Part shown: positions 2,321 through 17,201 of the stretch, one piece after another
Layout: every line of letters starts with the position of its first letter
How positions within the stretch are numbered: the first letter of the stretch is position 1
Source of the DNA: Clostridia bacterium
GTDB taxonomy: Bacteria > Bacillota > Clostridia > UBA1381 > UMGS1253
Direction of reading: 5' to 3'
Assembly (NCBI GenBank): GCA_045537695.1
Contig: JAZSQB010000069.1
Span: 4,730 to 68,729, forward strand
DNA length: 64,000 nucleotides
Made by a program: the position numbers and the translations under genes
The notes under the pieces: model-generated
What the model saw: the letters and a program-made list of their open reading frames with translations, nothing else
Database searches by the model: none
What the model was told of the DNA's origin: nothing

Positions 2321-3412
2321 TCAGACATTGAAACGGAACAGTACAATATCTCCGTCTTTCATCACATAATCCTTGCCTTCGGAACGGACAAGCCCTTTTT
2401 CCTTTGCCGCAACCATATTGCCGCAAGCGATAAGGTCATCATAATGGATAACTTCCGCACGGATAAAGCCCTTTTCAAAATCCGAATGGATTTTACCTGC
2501 CGCCTGCGGTGCCTTTGTGCCGTTGGTAATTGTCCATGCGCGAACTTCCGGCTCACCGGCAGTCAGATAACTGATTAAGCCGAGCAACTTGTAGCTGGAC
2601 TTTACAATCTTGTCAAGGCCGGATTCTGCCATGCCCATTTCGGCAAGGAATTCCTGCTTTTCTTCCGGCTCAAGCTCTGCGATTTCTTCTTCGATTCTTG
2701 CACAAATGGCAATCACTTCCGAGCCTTCCGCATCTGCAATGCCCTTCACTTCGGCAACCATCGCGTTCTCCGATGCATCTGCCGCTTCATCTTCGGACAC
2801 ATTTGCAGCATACAGTACCGGCTTCATAGTCAGAAGCGCAACTTCGCGCATCATTTCTCTTTCTTCATCGCTGTAGTCAAGCGCACGCGCCGGCTTACCT
2901 TCTTCAAGCCCAGCCTTTACGCGCTCTAAAAGGTCGAGCTCAATCTGGAATTTCTTATCGCCCTTCAGTGCCTTTTTTACGCGGTCAATTCTGCGCTCAA
3001 TCATTTCCATATCGGCAAATACGAGCTCGAGATTGATGGTTTCAATATCACGTGCCGGACCGATGCTGCCGTCCACATGCACGATGTTGGAGTCTTCAAA
3101 GCAACGTACTACATGCACGATGGCATCCACTTCACGGATGTGGGACAGAAACTTATTTCCGAGACCTTCACCGCGGCTTGCGCCCTTTACAAGACCTGCG
3201 ATATCCACAAACTCAATCATCGCCGGCGTAACCTTCTTCGGGTTGTGCATTTTGGTAAGCACATCGAGTCTTTCATCCGGCACAGCTACGATGCCGACAT
3301 TCGGCTCAATCGTACAGAACGGATAGTTTGCAGACTCCGCGCCCGCCTGTGTAATTGCATTAAAAAGTGTGGATTTTCCGACATTCGGCAGACCAACTAT
3401 ACCGAGTTTCAT
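2321..3412 (-). CDS. ychF: redox-regulated ribosome-binding ATPase YchF
   Basis: MKLGIVGLPNVGKSTLFNA P-loop, 363 aa, C-terminal TGS-like ..KDGDIVLFRFNV. Confidence 0.95.
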   Translation of the reverse strand: MKLGIVGLPNVGKSTLFNAITQAGAESANYPFCTIEPNVGIVAVPDERLDVLTKMHNPKKVTPAMIEFVDIAGLVKGASRGEGLGNKFLSHIREVDAIVHVVRCFEDSNIVHVDGSIGPARDIETINLELVFADMEMIERRIDRVKKALKGDKKFQIELDLLERVKAGLEEGKPARALDYSDEEREMMREVALLTMKPVLYAANVSEDEAADASENAMVAEVKGIADAEGSEVIAICARIEEEIAELEPEEKQEFLAEMGMAESGLDKIVKSSYKLLGLISYLTAGEPEVRAWTITNGTKAPQAAGKIHSDFEKGFIRAEVIHYDDLIACGNMVAAKEKGLVRSEGKDYVMKDGDIVLFRFNV

Positions 3413-3558
3413 ATATCTTCATTCTCCTTTATTTTCAAGGGTTTCAAATTGACCTGACACCAATTTGACACCATTACATTTTAATAGTTTCCTACTTTAC
3501 ATCAAAACATTATATCACAATACCGAATAATAGTCAATTATTCTGCGTGTTTTTGTTT
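3413..3558. repeat. att-like repeat copy A (ychF upstream arm + core CTGACACCAATTTGACACCATT + X arm)
   Basis: Core at 3454-3475. X-arm end at 3511-3558. Aligns with copies at 11114-11277 and 16863-17006. Confidence 0.8.
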
Positions 3559-3672
3559 CAATTTTGCTACGATTTTTTCATAGATTAACTTTCTTTTAAC
3601 TTTGTGAATTTATAATAATATTAAAATCAGGAAAATGTTTTGAATTTGACATAGCTCGGGAGGTGATAACAA

Positions 3673-4338
3673 GTGAAATTCAGGCATGAATACAAGCATC
3701 AAATAAACCTTGCTGATATATACGGTCTCAGGACAAGGCTTAGTGCAGTTGCAAAGTACGATCCTAATGCAGGCGAAGATGGGACATATTTTATCAAGAG
3801 CTTATATTTTGATAATTATATGGATAAAGCTCTTCGAGAAAAGATTGATGGATTGAATAAGCGAGAAAAGTTTCGTATCAGGTACTACGGAACCGACACA
3901 TCCTTTATCCGATTAGAGAAAAAAAGCAAAATAAACGGTTTATGTAATAAAGAAAGCTGCAGAATTACTGCTGAGGAATGTCAAAAGCTTATTGTCGGCG
4001 ATATTGAGTTTATGAAGGATAGTGAACATGAGCTGATACGAGAGTTATACTCTAAGATGAAATATCAGGTTCTCCGACCTAAATGTATCGTAGCATACAC
4101 CCGTGAGTGTTTTGTATATCCACCCGGGAATGTGAGGGTAACACTTGATATGAATATCTGTGGCAGTAACAATGTAAGGGAATTCCTGAATCCTGATTTG
4201 CCTTTCTTGCAGACTTATCACGAAGCAATCTTAGAAGTAAAATGGGATGAGTTTCTTCCACAGATTATTAGGGACTGTGTTCAGGTTAAATCAAGAAGAA
4301 GTGCCGCCTTCTCAAAATATGCGGCAATAAGAATATAA
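3673..4338 (+). CDS. VTC-domain (polyphosphate polymerase-like, CYTH/tunnel fold) protein
   Basis: 221 aa. MKFRHEYKH.., SLYFDN, KFRIRYYG, RLEKKSK, EVKWDE pattern typical of bacterial VTC-domain proteins. GTG start with GGGAGGTG RBS upstream. Confidence 0.75.
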   Translation: MKFRHEYKHQINLADIYGLRTRLSAVAKYDPNAGEDGTYFIKSLYFDNYMDKALREKIDGLNKREKFRIRYYGTDTSFIRLEKKSKINGLCNKESCRITAEECQKLIVGDIEFMKDSEHELIRELYSKMKYQVLRPKCIVAYTRECFVYPPGNVRVTLDMNICGSNNVREFLNPDLPFLQTYHEAILEVKWDEFLPQIIRDCVQVKSRRSAAFSKYAAIRI

Positions 4339-4367
4339 ATAAACTTAATGGAAGGAAGTAAAAAATT

Positions 4368-5039
4368 ATGACTTTTTCAGATGTATTTAAATCAAGCTTT
4401 TTATCAAACATCAATTCTTTTTCAACACTTGATGTGCTTTTAGCACTTGGACTTTCCTTTGTTTTGGGACTGTTTATCTTTTTTATTTATAAGAAAACCT
4501 ATCAGGGTGTTATGTATTCCGACTCTTTTGGTGTATCACTTATTGCGATGTCAATGATTACAAGCCTTGTTATTATTGCGGTAACATCAAATGTTGTGTT
4601 GTCACTTGGTATGGTCGGTGCTCTTTCTATCGTTCGTTTCAGAACTGCAATTAAAGAGCCTATGGACATTGCATTTTTATTTTGGTCAATAGCAGTTGGT
4701 ATCGTTCTCGGTGCAGGACTTCTTCCTCTTGCAATTATCGGCTCGGTTATTATCGGAATCATTATCGTAGTTTTCTCAACAAGAAAAATCGGTGATATTC
4801 CTTATATCCTTGTTGTAAACTGCGAAAGCGAAGAAACAGAAAATGAAGCATACGAACTTATTAAAGAAGAAGCAAAGAAAAGCCTTTTGAAATCAAAATC
4901 AATAAATAAATTAGGTGTTGAGCTTACATATGAAGTACGCATCAAAGATGATAACACAGGTTTTGTAAATAAAATCTCAGCTTGCAAAGGTGTAACAAAT
5001 GCAGTTTTAGTTTCCTATAACGGCGAATATATGTCGTAA
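4368..5039 (+). CDS. DUF4956 domain membrane protein
   Basis: 223 aa. About 4-5 hydrophobic helices. LSIVRFRTAIKEPMDIAFLFWSIAVGI signature. Soluble C-terminal tail. Confidence 0.75.
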   Translation: MTFSDVFKSSFLSNINSFSTLDVLLALGLSFVLGLFIFFIYKKTYQGVMYSDSFGVSLIAMSMITSLVIIAVTSNVVLSLGMVGALSIVRFRTAIKEPMDIAFLFWSIAVGIVLGAGLLPLAIIGSVIIGIIIVVFSTRKIGDIPYILVVNCESEETENEAYELIKEEAKKSLLKSKSINKLGVELTYEVRIKDDNTGFVNKISACKGVTNAVLVSYNGEYMS

Positions 5040-5057
5040 GATGAAAGGAGACTTAAA

Positions 5058-5627
5058 ATGCTGAAAAAAGTAATTCCGATAGTCCTTATGCTATGCTTGT
5101 TATTTAGTATAAGCGTAATGGCTGAAAATGAAAATCCGGTAAGTGAAGAAACTATACCCGAAGTATCACAGCAGATGCCGCAAGGTGCCGAGGAACGCCC
5201 ACAAGGCGGTCGTGGTAATATGGGTATGCCACCATCAGACGATATGCAAGGAAGAACTCCGCCGAATATGCCGAGCGGAGAGATGCCATCCGAAGGTATG
5301 AACAGAGGTCAAAGACCTTCAGGTAATTTTACTCCTCCACAGAACAACGATACAAATAATAACGCCGAAGCTACAACGCCTCAAGACGGTGATACGTCAG
5401 CGGAAAATTCGCAAATTCCAAATGGTAATCATCAGTTTGGCGGTCAGATGCCCGGCGGTATGGGCGGATTTCCCGGTAATATGCAAAACTTTAATGGGCA
5501 GACTCAGGAAGAGGTGCCTATGACATTTTTAGGCTTTGTTAAAACATATTCTACTCCTATAACTTCTGTAATTCTTTTAGCGTTGGCATTTGTTTTTGTT
5601 GTTTTTTACAGAAGAAAAAATTATTGA
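5058..5627 (+). CDS. secreted, C-terminally membrane-anchored low-complexity (Met/Pro/Gly/Asn/Gln-rich) protein
   Basis: Signal peptide MLKKVIPIVLMLCLLFSISVMA. About 130 aa disordered with MP and GG(F/M)GG motifs. C-terminal TM ITSVILLALAFVFVVFYRRKNY. Confidence 0.6.
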   Translation: MLKKVIPIVLMLCLLFSISVMAENENPVSEETIPEVSQQMPQGAEERPQGGRGNMGMPPSDDMQGRTPPNMPSGEMPSEGMNRGQRPSGNFTPPQNNDTNNNAEATTPQDGDTSAENSQIPNGNHQFGGQMPGGMGGFPGNMQNFNGQTQEEVPMTFLGFVKTYSTPITSVILLALAFVFVVFYRRKNY

Positions 5628-5675
5628 TATATTGAATGCCAACTAAATCTTGAAGAAAAGGAGGGTGAATATCAT

Positions 5676-7346
5676 ATGCTATCAAGTAAATATATTTCAA
5701 AAATAACGATTATACTTGTATCTGTTGTTTTGATTTTATGCGTTCTTGCAATGACTTTTTATGATAAGCTGTTACCTGTTGTAAATGATATGGGTTACAG
5801 TATGGAATATCAGGACAAGCTCTTTGATACAAGCAATATTATTGATATAAATATCGTTATGGATGAGACACAGTGGAATGAAATGCTCCAAAATGCAAGG
5901 CAGGAACAATATTATGAATGTGATGTTGTGATAAACGGAACTACTTTTAGGCAGGTCGGAATCAGACCAAAAGGAAATACAAGTCTTTCATCCATTGCAA
6001 GCGACCCAGACAATAACAGATATAGTTTTAAACTTGAATTTGACCAATTCGTTGACGGGCAGACTTGTTTCGGACTTGATAAATTAGCATTAAATAATAG
6101 CTATGCTGACACCACTAATATGAAGGAAGCAATCATTTATGATATGTTTCAGTTTTTAGATGCAGATGCTTCTCTTTACAACTATGCTAAGATTTCTGTA
6201 AATAATGAATATTGGGGTGTGTATCTTGCACTTGAAGCCGTTGAAGATAGTTTTATGCTACGCAATTACGGTATGGAAAAGGGATATTTATATAAGCCTG
6301 AAAATATGGGACGTGGCAATAACAATGGCGACAAAAAAGCAGAGGGCAATAATTTTCATGCACCGCCCGAAGGTGGATTTAAAATGCCGGAGAATTTTGA
6401 AAATGGCGCTCAAAACAGACCTCAAATGCCAAACCTTGAAACAAATACTCAAAACGAATCTGCACAAGGAGAAAGAAATCAATTCCCTAATGGTGGATTT
6501 GGCGGCGGCGAAAGAGCCGGACGTGGTGGATTCTTCGGTGGTATGGGTGGCGGAAGTAATTTGAATTATACCGATGATAATTTAGATAGTTATCAGACAA
6601 TATGGAATGGTGAGGTTACTGACAGTACGAAATCAGACCACAAGAGAGTTGTTGATGCACTTAAGAATGTTCACGAAAAAAATAATATTGAAAAATATAT
6701 TGATGTTGACCAAGTATTAAAGTATATGGCGGTTCATAACTTTTCTGTCAATGACGATAGTTTAAGCGGTTCTATGGCTCATAACTATTATCTGTATGAA
6801 GCAAATGGTCAAATCAGCATTTTGCCGTGGGATTACAACCTTGCTTTTGGCGGAATGCATCGTGCTGACGGAACAACCGTTATCAATGAACCTATTGACG
6901 ACTTATGGCAAGGAACAAAGCTTTTGGATTTTGTTTTAGAAAATGAAGAATATAAGGCTCGTTATCACGAGTATTACAATAAACTCGTGAACGAATATCT
7001 GCATGGCGGCAAATTTGAAGAAACATATAACAGAATTACCGGTCAGATAGATGAGCTTGTAAAAACTGATCCGAACAGTATGTATACCTATGAGGAATAT
7101 ACAAAAGGTATAGAAGTTTTATATGATACAGTAATGCTCCGTGCTGAAAGTATTAAAGGTCAACTTAACGGAACCATCCCGTCAACATCAGAAGGTCAGA
7201 AAGCAGATTCTTCAAAGCTTGTTGATGCATCACATCTAAATCTTTCCGATTTGGGACAGTTTAGAATGGGCGGTTTTGGTGGAAATCGAAATAACGGTGA
7301 ATGGGAAATGCCGGAAAGAAATAATCAGAACGTATCAAACGAGTAA
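5676..7346 (+). CDS. CotH family protein (atypical kinase fold), N-terminal membrane anchor
   Basis: 556 aa. FRQVGIRPKGNTS, KLEFDQF, LNNSYADTTNMKEAI, NEYWGVYLALEAVE. Carries a G/N/F/M-rich insert (about aa 205-295). Confidence 0.8.
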   Translation: MLSSKYISKITIILVSVVLILCVLAMTFYDKLLPVVNDMGYSMEYQDKLFDTSNIIDINIVMDETQWNEMLQNARQEQYYECDVVINGTTFRQVGIRPKGNTSLSSIASDPDNNRYSFKLEFDQFVDGQTCFGLDKLALNNSYADTTNMKEAIIYDMFQFLDADASLYNYAKISVNNEYWGVYLALEAVEDSFMLRNYGMEKGYLYKPENMGRGNNNGDKKAEGNNFHAPPEGGFKMPENFENGAQNRPQMPNLETNTQNESAQGERNQFPNGGFGGGERAGRGGFFGGMGGGSNLNYTDDNLDSYQTIWNGEVTDSTKSDHKRVVDALKNVHEKNNIEKYIDVDQVLKYMAVHNFSVNDDSLSGSMAHNYYLYEANGQISILPWDYNLAFGGMHRADGTTVINEPIDDLWQGTKLLDFVLENEEYKARYHEYYNKLVNEYLHGGKFEETYNRITGQIDELVKTDPNSMYTYEEYTKGIEVLYDTVMLRAESIKGQLNGTIPSTSEGQKADSSKLVDASHLNLSDLGQFRMGGFGGNRNNGEWEMPERNNQNVSNE

Positions 7347-7352
7347 ATTCAT

Positions 7353-7379
7353 AAGGTGTGGCGAAGTTCGTCACACCTT
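7353..7379 (+). terminator. possible hairpin after the CotH gene
   Basis: AAGGTGTG (7353-7360) pairs with CACACCTT (7372-7379). Weak T-run. Confidence 0.4.
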
Positions 7380-7461
7380 GAATATTATATAGAAAATGTT
7401 TGGGTTTCTTGTAATTTGAGCTATAATATGTTATAATTGGTTATGCAAAAGAGGTGAAATT

Positions 7462-8133
7462 ATGCGACTTTTGGTTGTTGAAGATGAAAAGCATCTTAAT
7501 AAAACACTAACGGAAAGACTGACAAAAATCGGTTATACCGTTGACAGTTGCTTTGATGGCGAGGATGCTTTGTACTATATAGAAAACACACAATATGACG
7601 GGATTATACTTGATGTTATGATGCCGAAGATTAATGGCTTTGATGTTCTTCGAATAATGCGTGAAAAGAAAATATTAACTCCTGTTTTGATGCTCACGGC
7701 GAAGGATTCGGATGAAGATATAATAATGGGACTTGATACCGGAGCAAATGATTATCTTACAAAACCATTTTCCTTTGACATCCTCTGTGCAAGAATCAGG
7801 GCGATGCTCCGAGTAAAAGAAAATATTACGGGAAGTGTGCTTGAAATTGCGGATTTGAGCATAGATACAACCACAAGACTTGTAAAGCGTGGAGATACAG
7901 TAATTGAGCTTTCGTCAAAGGAATACTCTGTACTTGAATACCTTATGCGAAATAAAGGCATTATCGTATCAAAAGAAAAGATTGAAGAAAATATTTGGAA
8001 CTATGAATACGAGGGTTCGAGCGATGTTATAAAGGTATATATCCACCACCTGCGTAAAAAGATTGATGATAACTACGAGGAAAAATTGCTCCATACCATA
8101 AAAAATGTGGGGTATGTGATAAAGGAAGATTAA
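7462..8133 (+). CDS. OmpR-family response regulator
   Basis: MRLLVVEDE.. receiver domain, DVMMPKINGF, winged-helix C-terminus (VYIHHLRKKID). Confidence 0.9.
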   Translation: MRLLVVEDEKHLNKTLTERLTKIGYTVDSCFDGEDALYYIENTQYDGIILDVMMPKINGFDVLRIMREKKILTPVLMLTAKDSDEDIIMGLDTGANDYLTKPFSFDILCARIRAMLRVKENITGSVLEIADLSIDTTTRLVKRGDTVIELSSKEYSVLEYLMRNKGIIVSKEKIEENIWNYEYEGSSDVIKVYIHHLRKKIDDNYEEKLLHTIKNVGYVIKED

Positions 8134-8134
8134 G

Positions 8135-9484
8135 ATGAAAAAGCCTACTTCTATAAAAACTAGAATAACAATATGGTACACAACACTTATGTTTGTACTT
8201 GTATTAGTTGTGCTTTCTTTAGTTGGCGGACTTTCTTATCAACTTTCCATAGACAGTATTGAAAAAGATGTTATTCTTCAGGTTACACAGGTGACTGAAA
8301 AGCTATCCAAAAGACAGCCCGGTGTATTTGAAATAGTTGAAAATAAAGAAGAATTTAAAAATGTATCCATTTATGAGATTGGCGGGAAATATCTTGTCGG
8401 GCAGTATAATTACGATGTTGTAAACATCCCGTTTGAAGAAGGTATTCCCCGAAGAGAAAATATAGACGGGAAAGATTATATCGTTTATGATACACGCACT
8501 CCGGGACCCCCCGGGATGCGTGGCGGCTTTTGGATAAGAGGTGTGGAATCGGTTAATTCTACGATGCTTTTGGGACGTTCTGCGATTATAATAATGCTTA
8601 TTTTAATACCGCTTATCCTATTTTTAACAGCACTTGGCGGATATTATATTACTAAAAGAGCATTTCGACCTGTAAACAATATTACAAAAACTGCAAATGA
8701 TATTTCTGCACAAAAGGATATTTCACGACGAATTGAAATATCTCCCGATTCAAAAGAAGATGAACTTCATCACTTGTCAGTTACTCTTAATAAAATGCTT
8801 GATAAAATTGAAAACCTTATCAAGCAGGAAAAGCAGTTTACTTCGGATGCTTCTCACGAACTAAGAACACCAATAAGCGTTATTCTTGCACAAGGCGAAT
8901 ATCTTTTGGATATTGCAAAGGATGAAAAAGAAAAAGAACTTGCTCAGACAATAGTTGATAAATCAAAACAGGTTTCAAAGCTTGTATCAAGACTTTTGCT
9001 CCTTGCAAGAATAGACCAAAACAGACAAAAATTCAATAAGGAAAAGGTTGACCTCGGTGTGATTATTGATGTTGCAGTTGACAGTATGAAAGAATTGGCA
9101 GCACAGAAAGAAATTCTGCTTTTCTCAAATGTAGCCGAAGGTATTATTGTGGATGCAGATGAACCATTGCTTCTATCTGCAATTACAAATCTTATCAGCA
9201 ACGGAATTAAGTACGGCAAAGAGTCCGGTCATGTATCTGTATCAGCTTCAAAGATTGGTGACAGAACAGAAATCATAGTTGCAGATAACGGCGTAGGAAT
9301 ATCAGGAGAAAACATTGATAAGATATGGACTCGCTTCTATCGTGTTGATGATGTCCGCAATGACGAATACGGAAGCAGTGGATTAGGTCTTTCAATGGTG
9401 AAAAGTATAATCGAACTACACGGTGGAGAGATTACTGTAAAAAGCAATATCGGTCAGGGAACAGAATTCAGAATTATGTTATAA
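8135..9484 (+). CDS. sensor histidine kinase (2 TM, HAMP, HisKA, HATPase_c)
   Basis: H-box FTSDASHELRTP. N-box NLISNGIKYG. G-boxes DNGVGI and GSSGLGLSMV. Confidence 0.9.
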   Translation: MKKPTSIKTRITIWYTTLMFVLVLVVLSLVGGLSYQLSIDSIEKDVILQVTQVTEKLSKRQPGVFEIVENKEEFKNVSIYEIGGKYLVGQYNYDVVNIPFEEGIPRRENIDGKDYIVYDTRTPGPPGMRGGFWIRGVESVNSTMLLGRSAIIIMLILIPLILFLTALGGYYITKRAFRPVNNITKTANDISAQKDISRRIEISPDSKEDELHHLSVTLNKMLDKIENLIKQEKQFTSDASHELRTPISVILAQGEYLLDIAKDEKEKELAQTIVDKSKQVSKLVSRLLLLARIDQNRQKFNKEKVDLGVIIDVAVDSMKELAAQKEILLFSNVAEGIIVDADEPLLLSAITNLISNGIKYGKESGHVSVSASKIGDRTEIIVADNGVGISGENIDKIWTRFYRVDDVRNDEYGSSGLGLSMVKSIIELHGGEITVKSNIGQGTEFRIML

Positions 9485-9642: not shown

Positions 9643-9978
9643 ATGCCGAGAAGTTACAGACATATGAAAGATTATGAATTAGAAATATTGGAGTTAAAAG
9701 CAGAAGGAAAGACCAATCGTGAAATATGCGAAAAGTTTGGTTTTGAAATGAAACAAATCAAGAATTTTATCAATAGATACAACAAAAATCAAAGGAAGAT
9801 AGCGGCAGGGATTTCAATTAAACGAAAAGGCAGACCGCTAAAAAACTATGTTGTTAGCGAACAAGAAAAAGCTGCAGAATTAAGATATATTCTTGCTCGT
9901 AAAGATGCAAAGATTAGAACATTAGAAATGGAAAATGAACTGATGCGGGATTTTCTCTCGCTCACAGAAAGGAAGTGA
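9643..9978 (+). CDS. IS3-family transposase OrfA (HTH)
   Basis: 111 aa with an HTH then a leucine-zipper-like tail. RBS AGGAGG upstream. Confidence 0.85.
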   Translation: MPRSYRHMKDYELEILELKAEGKTNREICEKFGFEMKQIKNFINRYNKNQRKIAAGISIKRKGRPLKNYVVSEQEKAAELRYILARKDAKIRTLEMENELMRDFLSLTERK

Positions 9979-10829
9979 GAGCAAGGGTAAAATATATGGT
10001 TATCTATCGTCATAAGGAAAAGTATTCGATTAGTGAGATGTGTAGATTTTTTGATGTATCAAGAAGTGGTTATTACAGTTATGTATCCCGTATGGAATTA
10101 CCAGCAAAAGATTTGCCTTTAGCTGAGAAGATAATGGAATGTCAAGAAAAATGTGGCAAAACTTATGGCTATCGTAGAGTACATATATGGCTTGAAAGAC
10201 AAGGAATACATCACAATCCAAAAACAATACTTCGAGTAATGCAGAAATACAACATGTTATCTGATGTCAGAAGAAAGAAATATCGTAATTATGGAGAGAG
10301 TTTACACCGCTACCCAAATTTGCTAAATAGAGATTTCAACGCAGAAAGACCAAATCAAAAATGGGTTACAGATATTTCATATATTAAAACTTATCAAGGA
10401 ACCTTGTATTTATCTGTAATTAGGGATTTATACGACAACAGTATTATTGCATATAAGATGGGAACAGAACAAAACACAAACCTTGTACTCTCAACAATTA
10501 GAGAGGCAAGGAAAAGAGAAAAGGTCACTACAGAGCTGCAACTCCATAGTGACCAAGGCTTTCAGTATACTTCACACGCGTACTTTAAGCTAACTAAATC
10601 ATACAACATTACGCCGTCAATGTCAAGAAAAGGTAATCCATACGATAATGCTTTAGCCGAAAATTTCTTCTCTATTCTTAAAACAGAGTGTATTTATCGG
10701 ACAAAGATTCAAACATACGATGACGCACGGCAGCTAATAGATGAATACATATATTTTTATAACAATGAAAGAATTCAATTAAAAACAAAACTGACACCGT
10801 ATGAAAAACGATGTCAGTATGTTGCATGA
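9975..10829 (+). CDS. IS3-family transposase OrfB (DDE integrase core), probably made as an OrfAB fusion by -1 frameshift
   Basis: WVTDISY, HSDQGFQYTS, NALAENFFSILKTE. The -1 frame is open from 9939. Confidence 0.85.
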   Translation: MRARVKYMVIYRHKEKYSISEMCRFFDVSRSGYYSYVSRMELPAKDLPLAEKIMECQEKCGKTYGYRRVHIWLERQGIHHNPKTILRVMQKYNMLSDVRRKKYRNYGESLHRYPNLLNRDFNAERPNQKWVTDISYIKTYQGTLYLSVIRDLYDNSIIAYKMGTEQNTNLVLSTIREARKREKVTTELQLHSDQGFQYTSHAYFKLTKSYNITPSMSRKGNPYDNALAENFFSILKTECIYRTKIQTYDDARQLIDEYIYFYNNERIQLKTKLTPYEKRCQYVA

Positions 10830-10930
10830 TTATTTGATAATTACTACCGTAGTAGTCTTTTTTGTGCTGTCTGCACAAAATGGTGCAGTTCATTTTTCTC
10901 GGGGACTTTTATCATAATTAAATATATTTT

Positions 10931-10988
10931 TGTGTCAAACTCTTTAAATAGTCTTTTATACTCCCTGACACCAATCCTGACACCAATT
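10931..10988. repeat. att-like repeat copy B1 (Y arm + core variant CTGACACCAATCCTGACACCAATT)
   Basis: Y arm TGTGTCAAACTCTTTAAATAGTCTT.. matches 16863-16896. Core at 10965-10988. Confidence 0.7.
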
Positions 10989-11113: not shown

Positions 11114-11130
11114 ACTATACCTAATTTCAT
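11114..11130 (-). pseudogene. relic of a ychF 5' end (codons 1-6, MKLGIV)
   Basis: Minus strand ATGAAATTAGGTATAGT versus the genuine ATGAAACTCGGTATAGT at 3412-3396 (15/17 identical). Same upstream RBS block. Similarity ends after codon 6. Confidence 0.55.
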
Positions 11131-11277
11131 AAGTTTTAAATCTCCTTTATTTTCAAGGGTTTCAGAATTGGTCTGACACCAATTTGACACCATTATAATT
11201 TTATTGTTGATAAATTTTATACTAAATAATCATATCACAATGTTGGATAATAGTCAATTATTCTGCGTGTTTTTGTT
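11114..11277. repeat. att-like repeat copy B2 (relic ychF start + upstream arm + core + X arm)
   Basis: 24/24 and 22/22 identical blocks with copy A. Last 31 nt of the X arm are identical to copy A. Confidence 0.8.
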
Positions 11278-11425
11278 CTGATTTTTGTGTTTCTGATTGA
11301 GAAATGTTATAAAACGTACTTTTTAGATGTTAAATAGTTTGTGAGTAAGATTATACCTTAAACCGCACCTCAGACGGTAGTGGATTAATTACAGATATGA
11401 CTGCATGCCTTTTAACGAGCGAAAA

Positions 11426-12304
11426 TTAATTTTTATAATGAATATTTTTATATTCACGAGGAGACATACCCATTATTTTATTAAAATTACGGTTAAAAGT
11501 AGAAAAATCATTATATCCGCACAGTCCGTAAATGGCGGTGATTTTATAGCCTTTTTTTATATATGAAGTTGCCGCCTTTATACGGCATGTGTTTAAGTAA
11601 TCATTAAATGAATGACCTGTTGTTTTAAAAAACAGTGCACAGAAATTGCTCTTTGACATAGCGGACTTCTTCGAAATTTCGTTTAATGTAATTTTATCTG
11701 CAAAATTATTTTCTATGTATTCGACGCAGTGGAGAACAAACTGTCTGTTGTCTTCAAAATGCTCTGATATATCGTGTTCATCCTTTGTGAAATACTCGCG
11801 GGCAAGCATTGTAACAAGTAACTGTGCATAGGCTTGTACCGTATCGTAATAAGCGATTGGCTTTTGGTTGAATTCTTTTAAAATGTGCGCCATTATGTTT
11901 TCAATGTAGAAAATTTCTTCAGAATTCATCAAAACTTTTGGTTTTACATATATGTCTTCGTTTGATTGCAGCGAACGAAGAAAATTTCTTGCAAGCTTGT
12001 TGGTGGTATACTGATCAAAAAACAGTTCCTCCATAAACGAAAAAGAGTAAAACACTGTGTTGTGTAACGGAGTTATGCAGTGTGTTACACCGGGCGGAAT
12101 AATAAACATATCTCCTTGCGTTAAGTGCGCTGACTCATTTTCAACATTGTGTTCAAGGCTTCCCTTTGATATATAATAAATCTGAAAATATTCGTGAGTG
12201 TGCGGTTTTTGCGCTTCTGTTACCTTGGCGAGTTTTTGAATATGAAAGTTTTCGGTGGAGTTTTCATAATAAGAAAGAACAAAATTTTTGACATCCATCA
12301 TCAT
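11426..12304 (-). CDS. AraC-family transcriptional regulator (cupin sensor + HTH)
   Basis: 292 aa. N-terminal cupin-like (HTHEYFQIYYI). C-terminal AraC HTH (GYNDFSTFNRNFNKIMGMSPREY). Confidence 0.9.
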   Translation of the reverse strand: MMMDVKNFVLSYYENSTENFHIQKLAKVTEAQKPHTHEYFQIYYISKGSLEHNVENESAHLTQGDMFIIPPGVTHCITPLHNTVFYSFSFMEELFFDQYTTNKLARNFLRSLQSNEDIYVKPKVLMNSEEIFYIENIMAHILKEFNQKPIAYYDTVQAYAQLLVTMLAREYFTKDEHDISEHFEDNRQFVLHCVEYIENNFADKITLNEISKKSAMSKSNFCALFFKTTGHSFNDYLNTCRIKAATSYIKKGYKITAIYGLCGYNDFSTFNRNFNKIMGMSPREYKNIHYKN

Positions 12305-12340
12305 TCACCTCTGTTTGCATTATAACATCCTTTTAGAATT

Positions 12341-12372
12341 AATGCAATATAAAAAAGAAAAAATGCAATATA
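12341..12372. promoter_or_regulatory. candidate operator: perfect direct repeat AATGCAATATA x2, 21 bp apart, in the divergent araC / atuA-like intergenic region
   Basis: AATGCAATATA at 12341-12351 and 12362-12372. Confidence 0.45.
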
Positions 12373-12413
12373 TATGCTTTTTGTTGTGCTAAAATTAAAA
12401 TGAGGTGATAGAT

Positions 12414-13727
12414 ATGAAAATAGTTGCATTAAACGGACTTTTAGGGTATGGGTACAGCAAAGAGGCTTTGGATGTCGCTTTTTCAGAAAAGGTTGATTAT
12501 CTTGGCGTGGATGCAGGCTCAACCGATCCCGGGCCGTATTATCTTGGAAGTGGTAAATCATTTACAGACCGCGGTGCGGTAAAAAGAGATGTATCCTTGG
12601 CTTTGCCAAAGGCATTGGAACATAAAGCGCCGTTTATCATCGGCAGTGCGGGCGGCGCAGGCAGCAGTGAACATGTTGCATGGCTGAAAGAAATCATTTT
12701 AGAGATTGCAAAAGAAAAAAAGCTTAATTTTAAATTGGGTACAATTTTAAGTGATGTATCCACTGCGTACGTACTTGAAAAATACGATAACGGTAAGTTG
12801 ATAGATATGAGTAGCGAGTTTCCTGCAGATAAAAACGCAATCCAAGACAGCGTACGTATTGTGAGTCAGATCGGTATCGCGCCGATTATAAAGCTGCTGG
12901 AAGAAAAGTGCGATGTTATTTTATGCGGACGAGCGTGCGATACGGCAATTTATGCTGCACCGTGCATATATGAAGGCTATAAAGAAGGTCTTGCTTTTCA
13001 TATGGCAAAGATTATGGAATGCGGTGCTATGTGTTCCGAGCCGGTTGCGGCGGCTGATGTTATGCAGGCGTATATGTATGACGATTACTTTGAGCTTCGT
13101 CCTGCAAATCCAATCAGAAAATGTACGGTTGACAGGGTAGCAGCACATACACTTTATGAACAATCGAATCCTTATTTAATATTTGAGCCTGATGGTGTTT
13201 GTAATCTTACAAACTCTGTGTTCACACAAGTTGACGAAAGAACGGTGAGAGTTTCCGGCTCGGTATTTGAAGAAGCGCCGGAAAAGACCTTAAAGTTGGA
13301 AGGTGTCAGATGTGCAGGTTTCAGAACAATATGCCCTGCCACAATTTATGATCCGAAAACCATAGAAAATTTTGATTTTATTGTTAATACAGTAACAGAA
13401 TTTGTTAAAGAAAATACAAAAGAGACAATGCCTGATAACAGTTATAAGCTTTTCTTTAAAACCAGCGGCGGAAAAGAAAGTTCTATGGGTGTTGTAATAG
13501 ACGTTGTAGGAAAAACACAGGAAATTGCTGATACAGTATGTGCACTGATCAGAAGCAGAATGCTTCACTGTGACTATGTAGGAAGAAAATCATCCGCAGG
13601 CAATCTTGCATTTCCATTTTCACCTTCAGATATTCACGTGGGGGCTGTTTATGAATTTTCCGTGTTCCATCTAACAAAGGTGAATTCTCTTATGGAAACG
13701 GCAAAAATTCTGATCGAGGAGGTTTAA
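12414..13727 (+). CDS. AtuA-like (DUF1446, acyclic terpene utilisation family) protein
   Basis: About 437 aa. N-terminal ..NGLLGYGYS..LGVDAGSTDPGPYYLGSG typical of DUF1446. ATG at 12414 has GAGGTG 8 nt upstream (the track start 12405 is a GTG). Confidence 0.7.
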   Translation: MKIVALNGLLGYGYSKEALDVAFSEKVDYLGVDAGSTDPGPYYLGSGKSFTDRGAVKRDVSLALPKALEHKAPFIIGSAGGAGSSEHVAWLKEIILEIAKEKKLNFKLGTILSDVSTAYVLEKYDNGKLIDMSSEFPADKNAIQDSVRIVSQIGIAPIIKLLEEKCDVILCGRACDTAIYAAPCIYEGYKEGLAFHMAKIMECGAMCSEPVAAADVMQAYMYDDYFELRPANPIRKCTVDRVAAHTLYEQSNPYLIFEPDGVCNLTNSVFTQVDERTVRVSGSVFEEAPEKTLKLEGVRCAGFRTICPATIYDPKTIENFDFIVNTVTEFVKENTKETMPDNSYKLFFKTSGGKESSMGVVIDVVGKTQEIADTVCALIRSRMLHCDYVGRKSSAGNLAFPFSPSDIHVGAVYEFSVFHLTKVNSLMETAKILIEEV

Positions 13728-13728
13728 A

Positions 13729-14028
13729 ATGAAAAAACTGATTGATTACACAAAAATTTTAAGAAGCAAAAATGCAGGTCCTCTTTTTATTACATTTGAT
13801 TTGATTTTCCATACAAAAGAAGATATGCAGTATGTAGAACAAAAGCTTACAAAAGCAGACATTGTAAAAGCTTATGATGTTGCCGAGGAGAAAATAGATA
13901 TTATCGCCTACGGTGTTGTAAATTCCATTAAAATAACTTTCCCAAGAAAAAATATAAGCGGCAGTCTTGCAGATAACGATATTTACGGATGTCAGCAACA
14001 TATGCCGCTGGCAAATATTGAAATATAG
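13729..14028 (+). CDS. DUF4387 domain protein (usual partner of AtuA-like proteins)
   Basis: 99 aa. ..LRSKNAGPLFITFDLIF.. motif. Starts 1 nt after the previous stop. Confidence 0.65.
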   Translation: MKKLIDYTKILRSKNAGPLFITFDLIFHTKEDMQYVEQKLTKADIVKAYDVAEEKIDIIAYGVVNSIKITFPRKNISGSLADNDIYGCQQHMPLANIEI

Positions 14029-14037
14029 CGGGGGATT

Positions 14038-15240
14038 ATGGCAATGTATGCAGATAAAGATTATATAATTTCGTTAAGACGTGAAATGCACGAATATCCT
14101 GAAATCGGGTTTGATTTACCTAAAACAATTGCGGTTGTAAAAAGAGAGCTTGATAAACTCGGTATTGAATATACTACAAAATACGGAGAATCAAGTGTAG
14201 TAGGTATTATAAACCCTGATAAAAAACATTTTACAATTGGTATTCGTGCAGATATGGATGCTTTGTTGATTGAAGAAAAGACAGATTTACCTTTTAAATC
14301 AAAAATCAAAGGGCAGATGCACGCCTGTGGACACGACGCGCATACAGCAATGCTTTTAGGTACTGCCAAAGCCTTAAAAGAAATGGAAGATAAGATTTGC
14401 TGCAGAGTTATGCTTGTTTTCCAGCCTAGCGAGGAAGGTATTAGAAGCGGCGCGGAGGCACTTGTAGCAGGCGGTCTTATGGATGAAATTGACGTTATCA
14501 TCGGTATGCATATTGAAAATTGGTTGGCATCCGGCTGCATCGGGGTATGCAAGGGAAGTTCGATGGCTTCCAGCCGTAGTTTCAAGCTTGATTTTTACGG
14601 AAAGACTGCGCACGCAACGTTACCGCACTCGGGCACTGATGCGTTGGCGACTGCCATCCGCACATACAATAACATTCAGTATATGCTTGGAAGAGAAATC
14701 AATCCGTTTTCGAAATATGTGTGTTCTGTAGGTAAACTTACGGGTGGCACTTCGCAGAATATTATAGCAGATCATGCCTATATGCTCGGCACAATCAGAA
14801 CATTTGATATGGAGTTGGATGCGTTCTTAATCAGAAGGATTGAAGAAATCGCGAAGAATGCCGCTGCAGAAGTGGGCGCAAAAGCGGAACTGGATACAAG
14901 TCTGAAGGCGTTTGTTGTATATAACAATCCCTATATTTCTGATTTGGTTCTTTCTGCAGGTGAAAAAATCGTTGGCAAGGAAAGGGTAGTAAATATGCCG
15001 GAAAAGCTTAGTTCGGAAGATTTTTCGCAGTATCTTACCAAAAAGCCCGGTGTGTTTTTAAGACTCGGCACACGCAATGAGGAAAAGGGGTGTGTGACCC
15101 TGCCGCATAATAATGATTTTTTAATAGACGAAGATGCGTTCCCTGTCGGAACTGATGTATGTGTTCAGTTTGTACTTGATAATATGGACGGTATAGATAT
15201 GGAGAGCGTTGAAAAATCGGATGAAAGGAAAAAGAGGTGA
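14038..15240 (+). CDS. M20D-family amidohydrolase (N-acyl-amino-acid deacylase / hippurate hydrolase type)
   Basis: HACGHDAH metal-binding motif, FQPSEE, about 400 aa. Alternative start ATG at 14044. Confidence 0.85.
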   Translation: MAMYADKDYIISLRREMHEYPEIGFDLPKTIAVVKRELDKLGIEYTTKYGESSVVGIINPDKKHFTIGIRADMDALLIEEKTDLPFKSKIKGQMHACGHDAHTAMLLGTAKALKEMEDKICCRVMLVFQPSEEGIRSGAEALVAGGLMDEIDVIIGMHIENWLASGCIGVCKGSSMASSRSFKLDFYGKTAHATLPHSGTDALATAIRTYNNIQYMLGREINPFSKYVCSVGKLTGGTSQNIIADHAYMLGTIRTFDMELDAFLIRRIEEIAKNAAAEVGAKAELDTSLKAFVVYNNPYISDLVLSAGEKIVGKERVVNMPEKLSSEDFSQYLTKKPGVFLRLGTRNEEKGCVTLPHNNDFLIDEDAFPVGTDVCVQFVLDNMDGIDMESVEKSDERKKR

Positions 15241-15246
15241 AACTTT

Positions 15247-16164
15247 GTGATTAAAACAGAAGTTTATGAACAGGCGCTTTTTGAAACAATTAAACGCGGC
15301 GCGACGGAAATTTCTCCGGATGTAAAAGAAGCGTTTATGAAGGCAATAGCGAGAGAAGAAAATGTTGATGCACAAAAAGGATTGAAAGCCACGCTGGAAA
15401 GCATGGAAATGTCGAAGGTGCGGGAAAATCCGCTTTGTGTGGATACGGGCTGGCCTATTTTCTATTTTAAGGTTGGTAATCAGTGTGAGATAGAAGGCGG
15501 ATTTGTAGAGCTCGAGAATGCTGCTCGCCGTGCGGTTGCAAAGGCTACAGAACTCGGTTATTTAAGAGCTACAATGAAACATCCTTTAACAGGATATGAC
15601 CCGGGAAACAACATAGGTATGAATATTCCTGATTTTACATATCAGTTTGTTGACGGTGATGCAATCGAGATGTCCTATGCAGCAAAAGGTGGCGGTAGTG
15701 AATGCTTCGGCGGCACAAGACACAGAATCGTCGCTTTTGCGGATGGAATAAAAGGTATTGAGAAATTTGTAATTGACAGCTTTGTGGCATCGGCAAGAGC
15801 GGGTGCGGTATGTCCTCCGTCAGTGCTTGGTATCGGTATCGGCGGAACAGCAAATGTTGCTGCAAATCTTGCTAAAGAGGCAGCGTGCTTACGAACTGTC
15901 GGCTCAAAGCACCCTGACCCGATGTTTGCAAAAATAGAAGAAGATTTATATGAAGCTATTAACAGTCTTGGAATAGGTATTTTAGGCGCAGGAGGAAGCA
16001 CCTCTGTACTTGCTGTAAATGTTGAATATGCATATACTCATATTGCGGGAATTGCCTGTGCAACGAGTACTAACTGTATGGTTGCGCGCCGTGCATCTAC
16101 AAGAATTGATGCAGACGGTAAAGTAACAAAAATGATAAGTCCCAACTGGTTTGGCGACAGATAG
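15247..16164 (+). CDS. Fe-S type hydro-lyase alpha subunit (fumarate hydratase / tartrate dehydratase N-terminal domain family)
   Basis: PLCVDTG, AAKGGGSE, CPPSVLGIGIGGT and a conserved late Cys (TNCMVARR). GTG start. Confidence 0.8.
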   Translation: MIKTEVYEQALFETIKRGATEISPDVKEAFMKAIAREENVDAQKGLKATLESMEMSKVRENPLCVDTGWPIFYFKVGNQCEIEGGFVELENAARRAVAKATELGYLRATMKHPLTGYDPGNNIGMNIPDFTYQFVDGDAIEMSYAAKGGGSECFGGTRHRIVAFADGIKGIEKFVIDSFVASARAGAVCPPSVLGIGIGGTANVAANLAKEAACLRTVGSKHPDPMFAKIEEDLYEAINSLGIGILGAGGSTSVLAVNVEYAYTHIAGIACATSTNCMVARRASTRIDADGKVTKMISPNWFGDR

Positions 16165-16174
16165 GAGGATACAT

Positions 16175-16798
16175 ATGGCAGAATACCATTTAACAGCGCC
16201 TTTAAAGGATGAAGATGTTAAAAAGTTAAAACTTGGCGATACCGTATACATTAGCGGTGAGTGTTTTACTTGCCGTTCAAGACTTCAAAAGTATATTTTC
16301 GATGAAGGAAATGTGTTGCCTTTTGATACAAAGGACAGAAACATTTTAATCCATAACGGACCTATTGTTGTCAAAGAGGACGGAAAGTGGCGTTTAGTTT
16401 CCTTTATGCCCACATCGAGCATCCGTTTTGAAAAATGGGGTGCAAAAAGTGTTTCTGAATGGGGGCTTAAAATGATTGTAGGTAAAACTACAATGGGTGA
16501 AAAAACGGCACATATGATGAAAGAAAAGAAGTGCGTTCACGTATCTCCGCGTTCTGTAAGCCCTAACCTCTGGATAGATTCAATAGAAGTGCAGGATGTT
16601 TATCTTTATGATGAACTTGGAAGAATTGAAGCTGCGTGGTTCTTTAAAATGAATGAATTAGGACCCTTTATCGTTGATATCGATGCAGAGGGTAATAATT
16701 ATTTTGACCATCTTGATAAAGATATAGCCGACAGAAAAGAGAAAGCTTTAAAAAAACTGGGTATTGATAATACTTTTGAATTTACAAAATTATATTAA
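16175..16798 (+). CDS. Fe-S type hydro-lyase beta subunit (fumarase C-terminal domain family)
   Basis: LKLGDTVYISGECFTCRS.., IVGKTTMG, AAWFFKMNELGPFIVDIDAEGNN. ATG at 16175 is preceded by AGGAGG. Confidence 0.8.
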   Translation: MAEYHLTAPLKDEDVKKLKLGDTVYISGECFTCRSRLQKYIFDEGNVLPFDTKDRNILIHNGPIVVKEDGKWRLVSFMPTSSIRFEKWGAKSVSEWGLKMIVGKTTMGEKTAHMMKEKKCVHVSPRSVSPNLWIDSIEVQDVYLYDELGRIEAAWFFKMNELGPFIVDIDAEGNNYFDHLDKDIADRKEKALKKLGIDNTFEFTKLY

Positions 16799-16804
16799 CG
16801 AGAA

Positions 16805-16836
16805 AAGGACAATGGAAATCAATCCATTGTCCTTTT
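16805..16836 (+). terminator. rho-independent terminator ending accessory module 2
   Basis: AAGGACAATGGA (16805-16816) pairs with TCCATTGTCCTT (16823-16834), then TTTT. Confidence 0.8.
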
Positions 16837-16862
16837 AATAATTTCAGGTGTTTTTTAGTTGT

Positions 16863-17006
16863 GTGTCAAACTCTTTTAAATGGTCTTATATACGCCCTGA
16901 CACCAATTTGACACCATTTGATTTTGAATTTCTCATCACAAATTTATACGCCAAAATATTATATCACACTGTTAAATAACAGTCAATTATTCCTCCTCTT
17001 TTTGTT
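16863..17006. repeat. att-like repeat copy C (Y arm + core + X arm in one piece)
   Basis: Y arm 16863-16896 matches B1. Core 16897-16918 is identical to the A and B2 cores. X-arm end 16960-17006 matches A at 37/47. Confidence 0.75.
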
Positions 17007-17201
17007 CCAAACCTACAATCACCTTTTGCCAATAATTACATATTAGCTCAAAAAACCATTTGAGATTTCAAAAAAATCCGTTTCACAGAAAATCGAATTA
17101 TAGGTACAATTAAAAACAAATGAAAATTTGAATCTTTTCCTTTACATTTCACTTTGGCTAATGTATAATATTAACATCAAATGAAGAATGGAGGGTATAC
17201 T

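Follow-up and report, generated by a model that had tools for sequence, protein, structure and literature searches.

Which compound is degraded by an operon to which no substrate could be assigned? The question is raised by a cassette at positions 11426-16798 of a 64,000-nucleotide stretch of DNA from a Clostridia bacterium (GenBank assembly GCA_045537695.1, contig JAZSQB010000069.1, positions 4,730 to 68,729 of the forward strand; the whole stretch is referred to below as the window). Here, the gene of an AraC/XylS-family regulator faces five co-directional genes, which encode an AtuA-family (DUF1446) protein, a DUF4387 protein, an M20D-type amidohydrolase and the two subunits, designated HylA and HylB, of an iron-sulfur (Fe-S) hydro-lyase. 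A first-pass annotation of the sequence had left this catabolic cassette with 'no assignable substrate'. Our analysis replaces that verdict with a concrete two-step hypothesis and a short list of substrates to test: the cassette is probably a horizontally mobile, AraC-controlled catabolic module, in which an acid of the fumarate type, substituted at C2 and of plant or microbial origin, would be hydrated and then cleaved to a 2-oxo acid and acetate in this gut organism. Mesaconate is the closest known model substrate.

The gene calls, defined by a listing of open reading frames (ORFs) together with Pfam and NCBIfam scans, give the following layout of the locus:

11426-12304, minus strand: AraC/XylS-family regulator, divergent from the operon (Pfam HTH_18, 8e-17, C-terminal; AraC_binding, 2e-10, and Cupin_2, 5e-9, N-terminal cupin ligand domain)
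12305-12413: candidate divergent control region of 109 nt, with two exact AATGCAATATA direct repeats
12414-13727, plus strand: CmlA-like large subunit, AtuA family/DUF1446 (437 aa; PF07287)
13729-14028, plus strand: CmlB-like small subunit, DUF4387 (99 aa; PF14330, 7e-26)
14038-15240, plus strand: M20D-type amidohydrolase (Peptidase_M20 and M20_dimer; TIGR01891)
15247-16164, plus strand: hydro-lyase alpha subunit HylA (Fumerase; PF05681, 8e-68)
16175-16798, plus strand: hydro-lyase beta subunit HylB (Fumerase_C; PF05683, 2e-20)
16803-16836, plus strand: intrinsic terminator closing the operon (14-bp stem, dG -20.1 kcal/mol, z -5.7, with a U-rich tract after it)

This bears out the arrangement drawn in the first-pass annotation, a divergent AraC gene opposite five co-directional genes that are 1-10 nt apart and are followed by a strong terminator. 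The gaps within the operon are 1, 9, 6 and 10 nt, and the start codons have good ribosome-binding sites; for the AtuA-family gene, the ATG at 12414 has a better ribosome-binding site than a possible GTG start at 12405, while HylB has an alternative start, a TTG at 16151. The regulator has the architecture of its family in the Pfam matches, namely an N-terminal cupin/AraC_binding domain and a C-terminal double helix-turn-helix. The two AATGCAATATA copies, read from the sequence at 12341-12351 and 12362-12372, are offset by 21 nt and form a candidate AraC operator.

The AtuA-family/DUF4387 pair had been regarded as a widespread couple without a defined reaction, catalyzing an unknown step of the pathway. 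Neither view can be upheld. The large subunit of the window matches PDB 9erq_A, 'Citramalate lyase, subunit A (cmlA)', over residues 2-425 with E=3e-103 (it also matches chain A of 9EVF), and the DUF4387 protein matches PDB 9erq_B, 'Citramalate lyase, subunit B (cmlB)', at 9e-20. On the strength of these matches to CmlAB citramalate lyase (PDB 9ERQ/9EVF), the pair is likely to represent CmlA/CmlB-like subunits of a CoA-independent, acetate-releasing C-C lyase, and thus likely to perform the last step, C-C cleavage. In E. coli O157, full-length counterparts of both proteins are encoded side by side: the CmlA-like protein is 44% identical to ECs_0760 (456 aa, AtuA family) and the CmlB-like protein is 39% identical to ECs_0759 (105 aa, DUF4387), the gene order in strain Sakai being glmE - mal - ECs_0760 - ECs_0759 - transporter - fumD. 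Kronen and Berg (2015; PMC4682846) described a DUF1446 gene, misannotated as methylaspartase, downstream of mal in the glutamate-fermentation island of enterobacteria, in which the mesaconase FumD is encoded as well, and the Cml of Raoultella converts citramalate directly to pyruvate and acetate (bioRxiv 10.64898/2026.01.16.699985). Apart from these two sources, the remark of 2015 and the preprint using Cml, the literature searched gave no primary description of CmlAB. The RefSeq names of the E. coli O157:H7 Sakai orthologues (L086 31934-33618), '3-methylaspartate ammonia-lyase' for CmlA and 'acyl-CoA synthetase' for CmlB, are both wrong by Pfam and PDB match.

In the proposed pathway, the hydro-lyase would supply the acid that the CmlAB-like pair cleaves. 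The first-pass annotation had quoted PLCVDTG in the alpha and TCRSRLQKY in the beta subunit as departures from the family motifs, hinting at a substrate other than fumarate, and had proposed an alignment with characterised FumA, TtdAB and mesaconase as a check. Both motifs are present as written. The window subunits and six diverse members of their clade were compared in an alignment with FumA, FumD and TtdA/TtdB of E. coli and with six hydro-lyases of Clostridia whose genes lie beside mal. All the reference enzymes have CQDTG in the alpha subunit and T(A/C/G)RDxxH, GPT(T/S)xxRM(D/E) and GKG in the beta subunit, whereas the window clade invariantly has CVDTG, 'DPGNN' and an insert after KGGGSE in alpha, and TCRSRLQ, MPTSSIRFE, GKTTM and SPRSVSPN in beta. 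The differences are real and clade-specific; far from being common among bona fide fumarases, they are absent from these, from mesaconases and from TtdAB, in the alignment and in the tree described below.

What the differences may mean for catalysis is suggested by the fumarase of M. jannaschii (MjFH, PDB 7XKY), in which the substrate is contacted by Gln61, Asp62, Arg102 and Gly147 of the alpha subunit, by Arg32, Thr80, Thr81, Arg84 and Lys104 of the beta subunit, and by His257. The Gln of CQDTG hydrogen-bonds a substrate carboxylate and is essential in MjFH, and the replacement of Gln61 with a non-polar residue leaves the enzyme inactive on fumarate and malate (bioRxiv 10.1101/2022.09.03.506457). 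HylAB keeps the three Cys ligands of the [4Fe-4S] cluster (those of CVDTG, VCPP and TNCM, which align with FumA, TtdA and MjFH), as well as the catalytic Asp/His and Thr and the carboxylate-binding Arg, Arg and Lys, with equivalents of D62, H257, R102 and G147 in alpha and of R32, T80, R84 and K104 in beta. T81 is conservatively replaced with Ser, and only Gln61 is lost, its place being taken by Val. As this is the only loss, and as the loss of Gln61 inactivates MjFH, HylAB looks catalytically competent yet unsuited to fumarate, in agreement with the earlier hint. The Val is invariant in the gut clade, and P, A or G occupies the same position in sister lineages.

The best structural matches of HylA and HylB are 7xky_A (5e-49) and 2isb and 7xky_B (~3e-26 to 5e-26), respectively, and the subunits do not reach the NCBIfam equivalog cut-offs of PRK06246 (230.5 vs 276), TtdA (148 vs 365), TtdB (147.7 vs 264) or PRK06043 (124 vs 269). 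By its sequence, HylAB is outside the characterised fumarase, mesaconase and TtdAB groups, whose defining motifs it lacks and whose equivalog scores it does not attain. A search of 1.84 billion representative proteins returned a tight HylA clade, one relative at 56% identity (CADTG) and then relatives at 33-43%; 114 of the 150 best matches had a recognisable motif, and in 39 of these the Gln was missing. In a maximum-likelihood (ML) tree from a quick IQ-TREE search with SH-aLRT support, the sequences without Gln ('non-Q') formed one clade of 29 rows (SH-aLRT 99) with the window HylA inside it, and with FumA, FumD, TtdA and the six mal-linked mesaconases, to which the window HylA is 32-38% identical, outside. 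Moreover, in 60 metagenome loci, the non-Q residue of the alpha subunit co-occurred with R-S-x-(L/F)-(Q/H), PTSSIRFE and GKTTM in the beta subunit in most non-Q loci, a minority having variant beta motifs, and every CQDTG enzyme in metagenome loci had TARD(Q/E)AH, PTTSxR(M/I)(D/E/N) and GKGGM. Six Clostridia hydro-lyases with weak Pfam scores, considered as further non-Q candidates, were discarded, all of them having CQDTG. We found no publication describing the non-Q subfamily or this combination of genes.

The two enzymes keep together in other genomes. When one genome per species was scanned, 80 loci were obtained that encode CmlA-like proteins 76-88% identical to that of the window, all in metagenome-assembled genomes (MAGs) of Clostridia of several families, many of them from goat, sheep, roe deer, water buffalo or rumen according to the record titles. 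HylA and HylB were encoded within 6 kb of CmlAB in 51 of the 53 loci that had at least 6 kb downstream of CmlA, and of the 72 loci whose upstream sequence was long enough, 59 had a divergent AraC gene no more than 1.5 kb away, so that the cassette can be regarded as a conserved AraC-linked unit, as had been supposed. The same does not hold for all of its genes. The M20D gene, present here at 14038-15240 as annotated, does not belong to the conserved core: it occurs in 24 of the 51 complete cassettes and is missing from 27, being replaced or joined by PGA_cap-like, M81/MlrC-like or AXE1-like genes. When neighbouring ORFs were clustered, nothing beyond the core was common to more than four loci except genes inserted within the operon, which encode PGA_cap/CapA-like proteins (20 loci), M81/MlrC-like peptidases (7 loci), AXE1-type esterases (7 loci), a 310-aa protein without a Pfam match (6 loci) and a weakly ceramidase-like protein (1 locus). 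Hence, the conserved core is AraC, the CmlAB-like pair and HylAB, the hydrolases are interchangeable add-ons, and the gut version has no transporter gene. Among 400 evenly sampled Clostridia genomes, the cassette was found in 7-8, which belong to six families and share 77-95% protein identity; most cassette-bearing Clostridia also encode a canonical CQDTG enzyme.

Two further arrangements were observed among the gut loci. The gene of the 310-aa protein lies between araC and cmlA in six cassettes (L014 2555-3487 and five others), and in a few loci (L055 11703-15045; also L072 and L076) a CmlAB-like pair without a hydro-lyase is followed by genes of a PGA_cap-like protein, an ArgE/DapE-type M20 peptidase and a protein with a metallo-beta-lactamase fold.

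The linkage of the two enzymes also extends to deeper relatives. A metagenome scan with the non-Q sequences (by a 7-sequence alignment, one of 21 sequences being too diverse) yielded 80 loci. In at least 11 of them, a lineage with HylA 65-74% identical to that of the window (CPDTG or CADTG) adjoins CmlA (53-58%) and CmlB in varying gene orders, often with AraC and M20-type genes present. Unlike the gut cassettes, these loci can be flanked by transporter genes: TRAP DctPQM (L161, L190), DcuC (L168), Xan_ur_permease (L163), or a Dpp/Opp-type ABC transporter with a PGA_cap-like gene (L191), the last arrangement being apparently shared by L195, L197 and L203, as tblastn matches and ORF-length patterns suggest. 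The presence of carboxylate carriers in some loci, and of peptide-type carriers and hydrolases in others, fits the uptake of a free or a conjugated acid. In a quick ML tree of CmlA, the window type and three environmental sequences formed a clade of their own (SH-aLRT 100), apart from the E. coli/mal-linked group, at 37-49% identity, and four other environmental CmlA proteins encoded beside non-Q hydro-lyases clustered with the E. coli and mal-linked citramalate lyases. Hydro-lyases of this lineage therefore occur with CmlA proteins of two subclades, and as the context-validated citramalate lyases belong to one of these, a citramalate-like product is favoured. Of the 129 columns invariant in Ec-type CmlA, 80 are kept in the window type and 73 in a more distant group, a count that does not discriminate.

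More distant non-Q hydro-lyases (38-61%) are encoded in a different conserved cluster (L134 785-11787 and L157 4522-12967, from sediment and digester contigs), together with a sigma-54 activator, a DUF1847 protein, a TfrA/TfrB-like flavoprotein and Fe-S/CCG subunit, a small CDC48_N-like protein, a PrpD/MmgE-like protein, a SucCD-like CoA ligase and a CitE/RipC(Ccl)-like lyase, all below the equivalog cut-offs. The cluster reads as a sequence of dehydrogenase, hydratase, CoA activation and acetyl-releasing CoA-dependent lyase, the latter being the functional analogue of CmlAB, and resembles an anaerobic pathway for substituted succinates of the methylsuccinate or tricarballylate kind.

From the observed gene content, homologies, architecture, co-conservation and active-site signature, we infer a class of substrate and an order of steps, as well as a ligand for the regulator and a role for M20D and the other hydrolases, as follows. 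HylAB would add water to a C2-substituted fumarate, giving a 2-hydroxy-2-substituted succinate, which is citramalate when a methyl group is the substituent. The CmlAB-like pair, to judge from its homology, would then split this product, with no need for CoA or ACP, to give acetate and a 2-oxo acid (pyruvate in the case of citramalate). M20D would serve as an optional front end, freeing the acid or a co-substrate bound in an amide conjugate; in other loci, amide or ester conjugates of the acid would be opened by the PGA_cap-like, M81-like and AXE1-like enzymes. AraC presumably responds to the acid and switches on the operon via the AATGCAATATA repeats.

Several points weigh against this pathway, at least in its simplest form. 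The mal-linked clostridial mesaconases and E. coli FumD retain the Gln, and therefore its loss is not needed for activity on mesaconate and may point to a different substituent. Likewise, the window CmlA falls in a sister clade outside the mal-linked CmlA group, so its substrate may differ from citramalate. The enzyme name CmlAB itself comes from PDB titles and one preprint that used Cml. The cassette of the window contains no transporter gene, and the roles given to M20D and the other hydrolases are conjecture. Additionally, no match to methylaspartase (MAAL_C) or to the glutamate mutase E subunit (Met_asp_mut_E) was found in the genome to which the window belongs (1.65 Mb, 98.6% complete), which rules out glutamate fermentation for this genome.

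Some of these points bear directly on the alternative that survives best, which is a special case of the proposed pathway: the cassette would be exactly the lower methylaspartate pathway, from mesaconate through (S)-citramalate to pyruvate and acetate, HylAB being a plain mesaconase and the cell a scavenger of free mesaconate or citramalate. The homology to CmlAB, the order mal-cmlAB-fumD in E. coli O157 and the mal-CmlAB association in Clostridia are all as expected for such a pathway, as are the grouping of four non-Q-linked CmlA proteins with true or mal-linked CmlA, and the genes of the RipC/Ccl-like type (citramalyl-CoA lyase) next to hydro-lyases of the same signature. However, the context-validated mesaconases all keep CQDTG/RDxAH and are so remote from the window HylA (the 32-38% identity given above), and the window CmlA is of the sister type; we therefore treat an exact mesaconate pathway as a serious possibility but not as our favoured one. 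A bolder extension of the proposed pathway, which we put forward tentatively and with some doubt, is that HylAB represents a subfamily of class I Fe-S hydro-lyases that is new and distinct in function (alpha C[PAGV]DTG; beta R-S-x-(L/F)-(Q/H), PTSSIRFE, GKTTM) and that has exchanged fumarate for another 2-substituted unsaturated di- or tricarboxylate, e.g. a larger alkyl-fumarate or forage-derived trans-aconitate. Joined to a new CmlAB subclade, it would make up a CoA-free 'hydrate-and-split' cassette that spreads horizontally in herbivore-gut Clostridia and acquires different hydrolases for different natural conjugates.

Grasses accumulate trans-aconitate, and many of the cassette-bearing MAGs come from ruminant guts. 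A specific bulkier or charged 2-substituted fumarate from forage could thus be considered, for instance trans-aconitate being hydrated to citrate, and citrate being cleaved to oxaloacetate and acetate by a CmlAB relative acting like a CoA-independent citrate lyase. The clade-wide change of Gln to the small or hydrophobic P, A, G or V would open space beside C2, and relatives with the same signature adjoin genes of a CitE-like lyase, of PrpD/MmgE-like proteins and of ATP-grasp proteins with weak Citrate_bind matches. Yet the four beta-subunit residues that bind carboxylates are unchanged and equally compatible with mesaconate, and the Citrate_bind matches are marginal, NCBIfam aligning these proteins from end to end with SucC, for which reason the use of a citryl-CoA synthetase by these relatives ranks as no more than a minor alternative. 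We find this kind of substrate unlikely.

Still less probable is the route that the first-pass annotation had proposed, a self-contained one in which an N-acylated dicarboxylic amino acid (e.g. N-acetyl-aspartate or N-acetyl-methylaspartate) would be deacylated by M20D and then carried to a central metabolite. The M20D protein itself could make such a start: it scores 336 bits against TIGR01891 (cut-off 153.75), its translation contains the HACGHD motif, its nearest structures are YxeP and ILL2, and M20D enzymes deacylate N-acyl amino acids, so we assign it, with the qualification that homology allows, to the N-acyl-amino-acid deacylase type, as an accessory, non-core enzyme. Two genes of the class II fumarase/aspartase family elsewhere in the genome could also be cited in favour of this route. 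Nevertheless, M20D is dispensable, as its absence from more than half of the complete cassettes indicates, and the cassette encodes no ammonia-lyase, aminotransferase, dehydrogenase or other deaminating enzyme. With methylaspartase and glutamate mutase lacking in the genome as well, an N-acylated dicarboxylic amino acid would have no path to the substrate of the hydro-lyase, and fumarate is disfavoured as that substrate by the loss of Gln. Finally, that HylAB is the housekeeping class I fumarase and stands next to the AtuA-like pair without meaning is hardly credible: although no other Fumerase-family gene is present in the genome, two class II (FumC/AspA-type) genes are, the essential Gln is missing, HylAB is under AraC control in a mobile low-GC module and is co-inherited with CmlAB in nearly all loci with sufficient sequence and also at deeper divergence, and a canonical CQDTG enzyme accompanies the cassette in most of its hosts.

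The two-step module of hydration and cleavage is thus the reading we retain, and the surroundings of the cassette speak to its mobility. The GC content is 31-43% over 3-17 kb, compared with 45-55% in the remainder of the window, which confirms that the cassette lies inside a low-GC module. The module is bounded by two repeats:

11114-11285: upstream boundary repeat of the low-GC module (direct-repeat families D1-D3; relic ychF start and core CTGACACCAATTTGACACCAT)
16856-17014: downstream boundary repeat of the low-GC module (direct-repeat families D1, D2, D4 and D9)

These are copies of a ~170-nt repeat that brackets the cassette; a third copy lies at 3396-3565 and a further repeat stretch at 10925-10975. 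The repeat is derived from the upstream region of ychF and its first six codons, and a relic MKLGIV start is encoded at 11114-11164. The core CTGACACCAATTTGACACCAT occurs in the window at 3454, 11173 and 16897. Of the 80 related loci, no more than two contain it, L005, with two copies separated by 6.8 kb, and L016, and in these it lies immediately upstream of the AraC genes. No integrase gene was found within either of the two low-GC modules described below. The distribution of the cassette over six families at 77-95% protein identity, together with its repeat-bounded, low-GC placement here, fits horizontal mobility among Clostridia.

The low-GC region as a whole consists of two tandem modules delimited by copies of the ~170-nt repeat. 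Module 1 (3673-9484) encodes a VTC-domain protein, a DUF4956 protein, a 189-aa protein without a Pfam match, a CotH kinase-like protein and a response regulator/histidine kinase pair. At 9643-10829, where module 1 meets the repeat preceding the cassette, there is an IS3-family transposase (orfA with a helix-turn-helix domain, orfB with rve).

If the proposed function is right, its implications go beyond this locus. CmlAB-type CoA-independent lyases do not appear to be confined to glutamate fermentation: they are encoded in a mobile cassette that occurs in ~2% of the Clostridia genomes sampled, across six families, and also in sediment and digester metagenomes. HylAB marks a sizeable, sequence-defined branch of the Fe-S fumarase family that lacks a residue essential for fumarase activity, and for this reason the annotations 'fumarate hydratase' and 'tartrate dehydratase' are probably wrong for its members. 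A route that leads from C5/C6 unsaturated acids to 2-oxo acids and acetate and needs no CoA would also be of interest for pathway engineering, where Cml has already been used in a synthetic methylsuccinate module.

Compared with known systems, the cassette resembles the lower half of the methylaspartate pathway, i.e. mesaconase and citramalate lyase, its lyase being placed by phylogeny as a sister clade of characterised CmlAB. Like the enterobacterial CmlAB (PDB 9ERQ/9EVF; Cml of Raoultella planticola; the glm-mal-cmlAB-fumD island of E. coli O157), the window pair consists of adjacent AtuA-family (~440-456 aa) and DUF4387 (~100 aa) subunits encoded near a hydratase of the class I fumarase family. 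In contrast to it, the window pair has no link to glutamate mutase or methylaspartase, its hydratase partner is a two-subunit non-Q hydro-lyase instead of FumD, and it is AraC-controlled, carried on a mobile cassette and placed in a separate sister clade.

HylAB, in turn, shares Pfam families, subunit architecture, the three Cys ligands and acid/base residues with the two-subunit mesaconase of the clostridial methylaspartate pathway and the promiscuous FumA/FumD, and, like them, would stand directly before the step of citramalate cleavage. It differs from them in CVDTG instead of CQDTG, TCRSRLQ instead of T(A)RDxAH, MPTSSIRFE instead of GPTTSxRMD and GKTTM instead of GKG, and in the extra 'CFGGTRH' insert after KGGGSE in HylA. 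The L(+)-tartrate dehydratase of E. coli, TtdAB, is likewise a two-subunit Fe-S hydro-lyase, and TtdB is the top-scoring NCBIfam model for HylB (147.7 bits), but the E. coli enzyme keeps CQDTG, TCRDVCH, PTTSMRME and GKGGM, and the window has no TtdT or TtdR context. The class I fumarate hydratase of M. jannaschii (7XKY) is the best solved relative of both subunits; 9 of its 10 active-site residues are kept or conservatively changed in HylAB, and the tenth, Gln61, is Val in HylA. Finally, the CoA-dependent C5-dicarboxylate routes for itaconate and methylsuccinate, which employ a hydratase and the citramalyl-CoA lyase Ccl/RipC, follow the same logic, in that a branched unsaturated dicarboxylate is hydrated and then cleaved with the release of an acetyl unit. 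Unlike them, the window cassette encodes neither a CoA ligase or transferase nor a lyase of the HpcH type, and its cleavage step would proceed independently of CoA, through the CmlAB-like pair.

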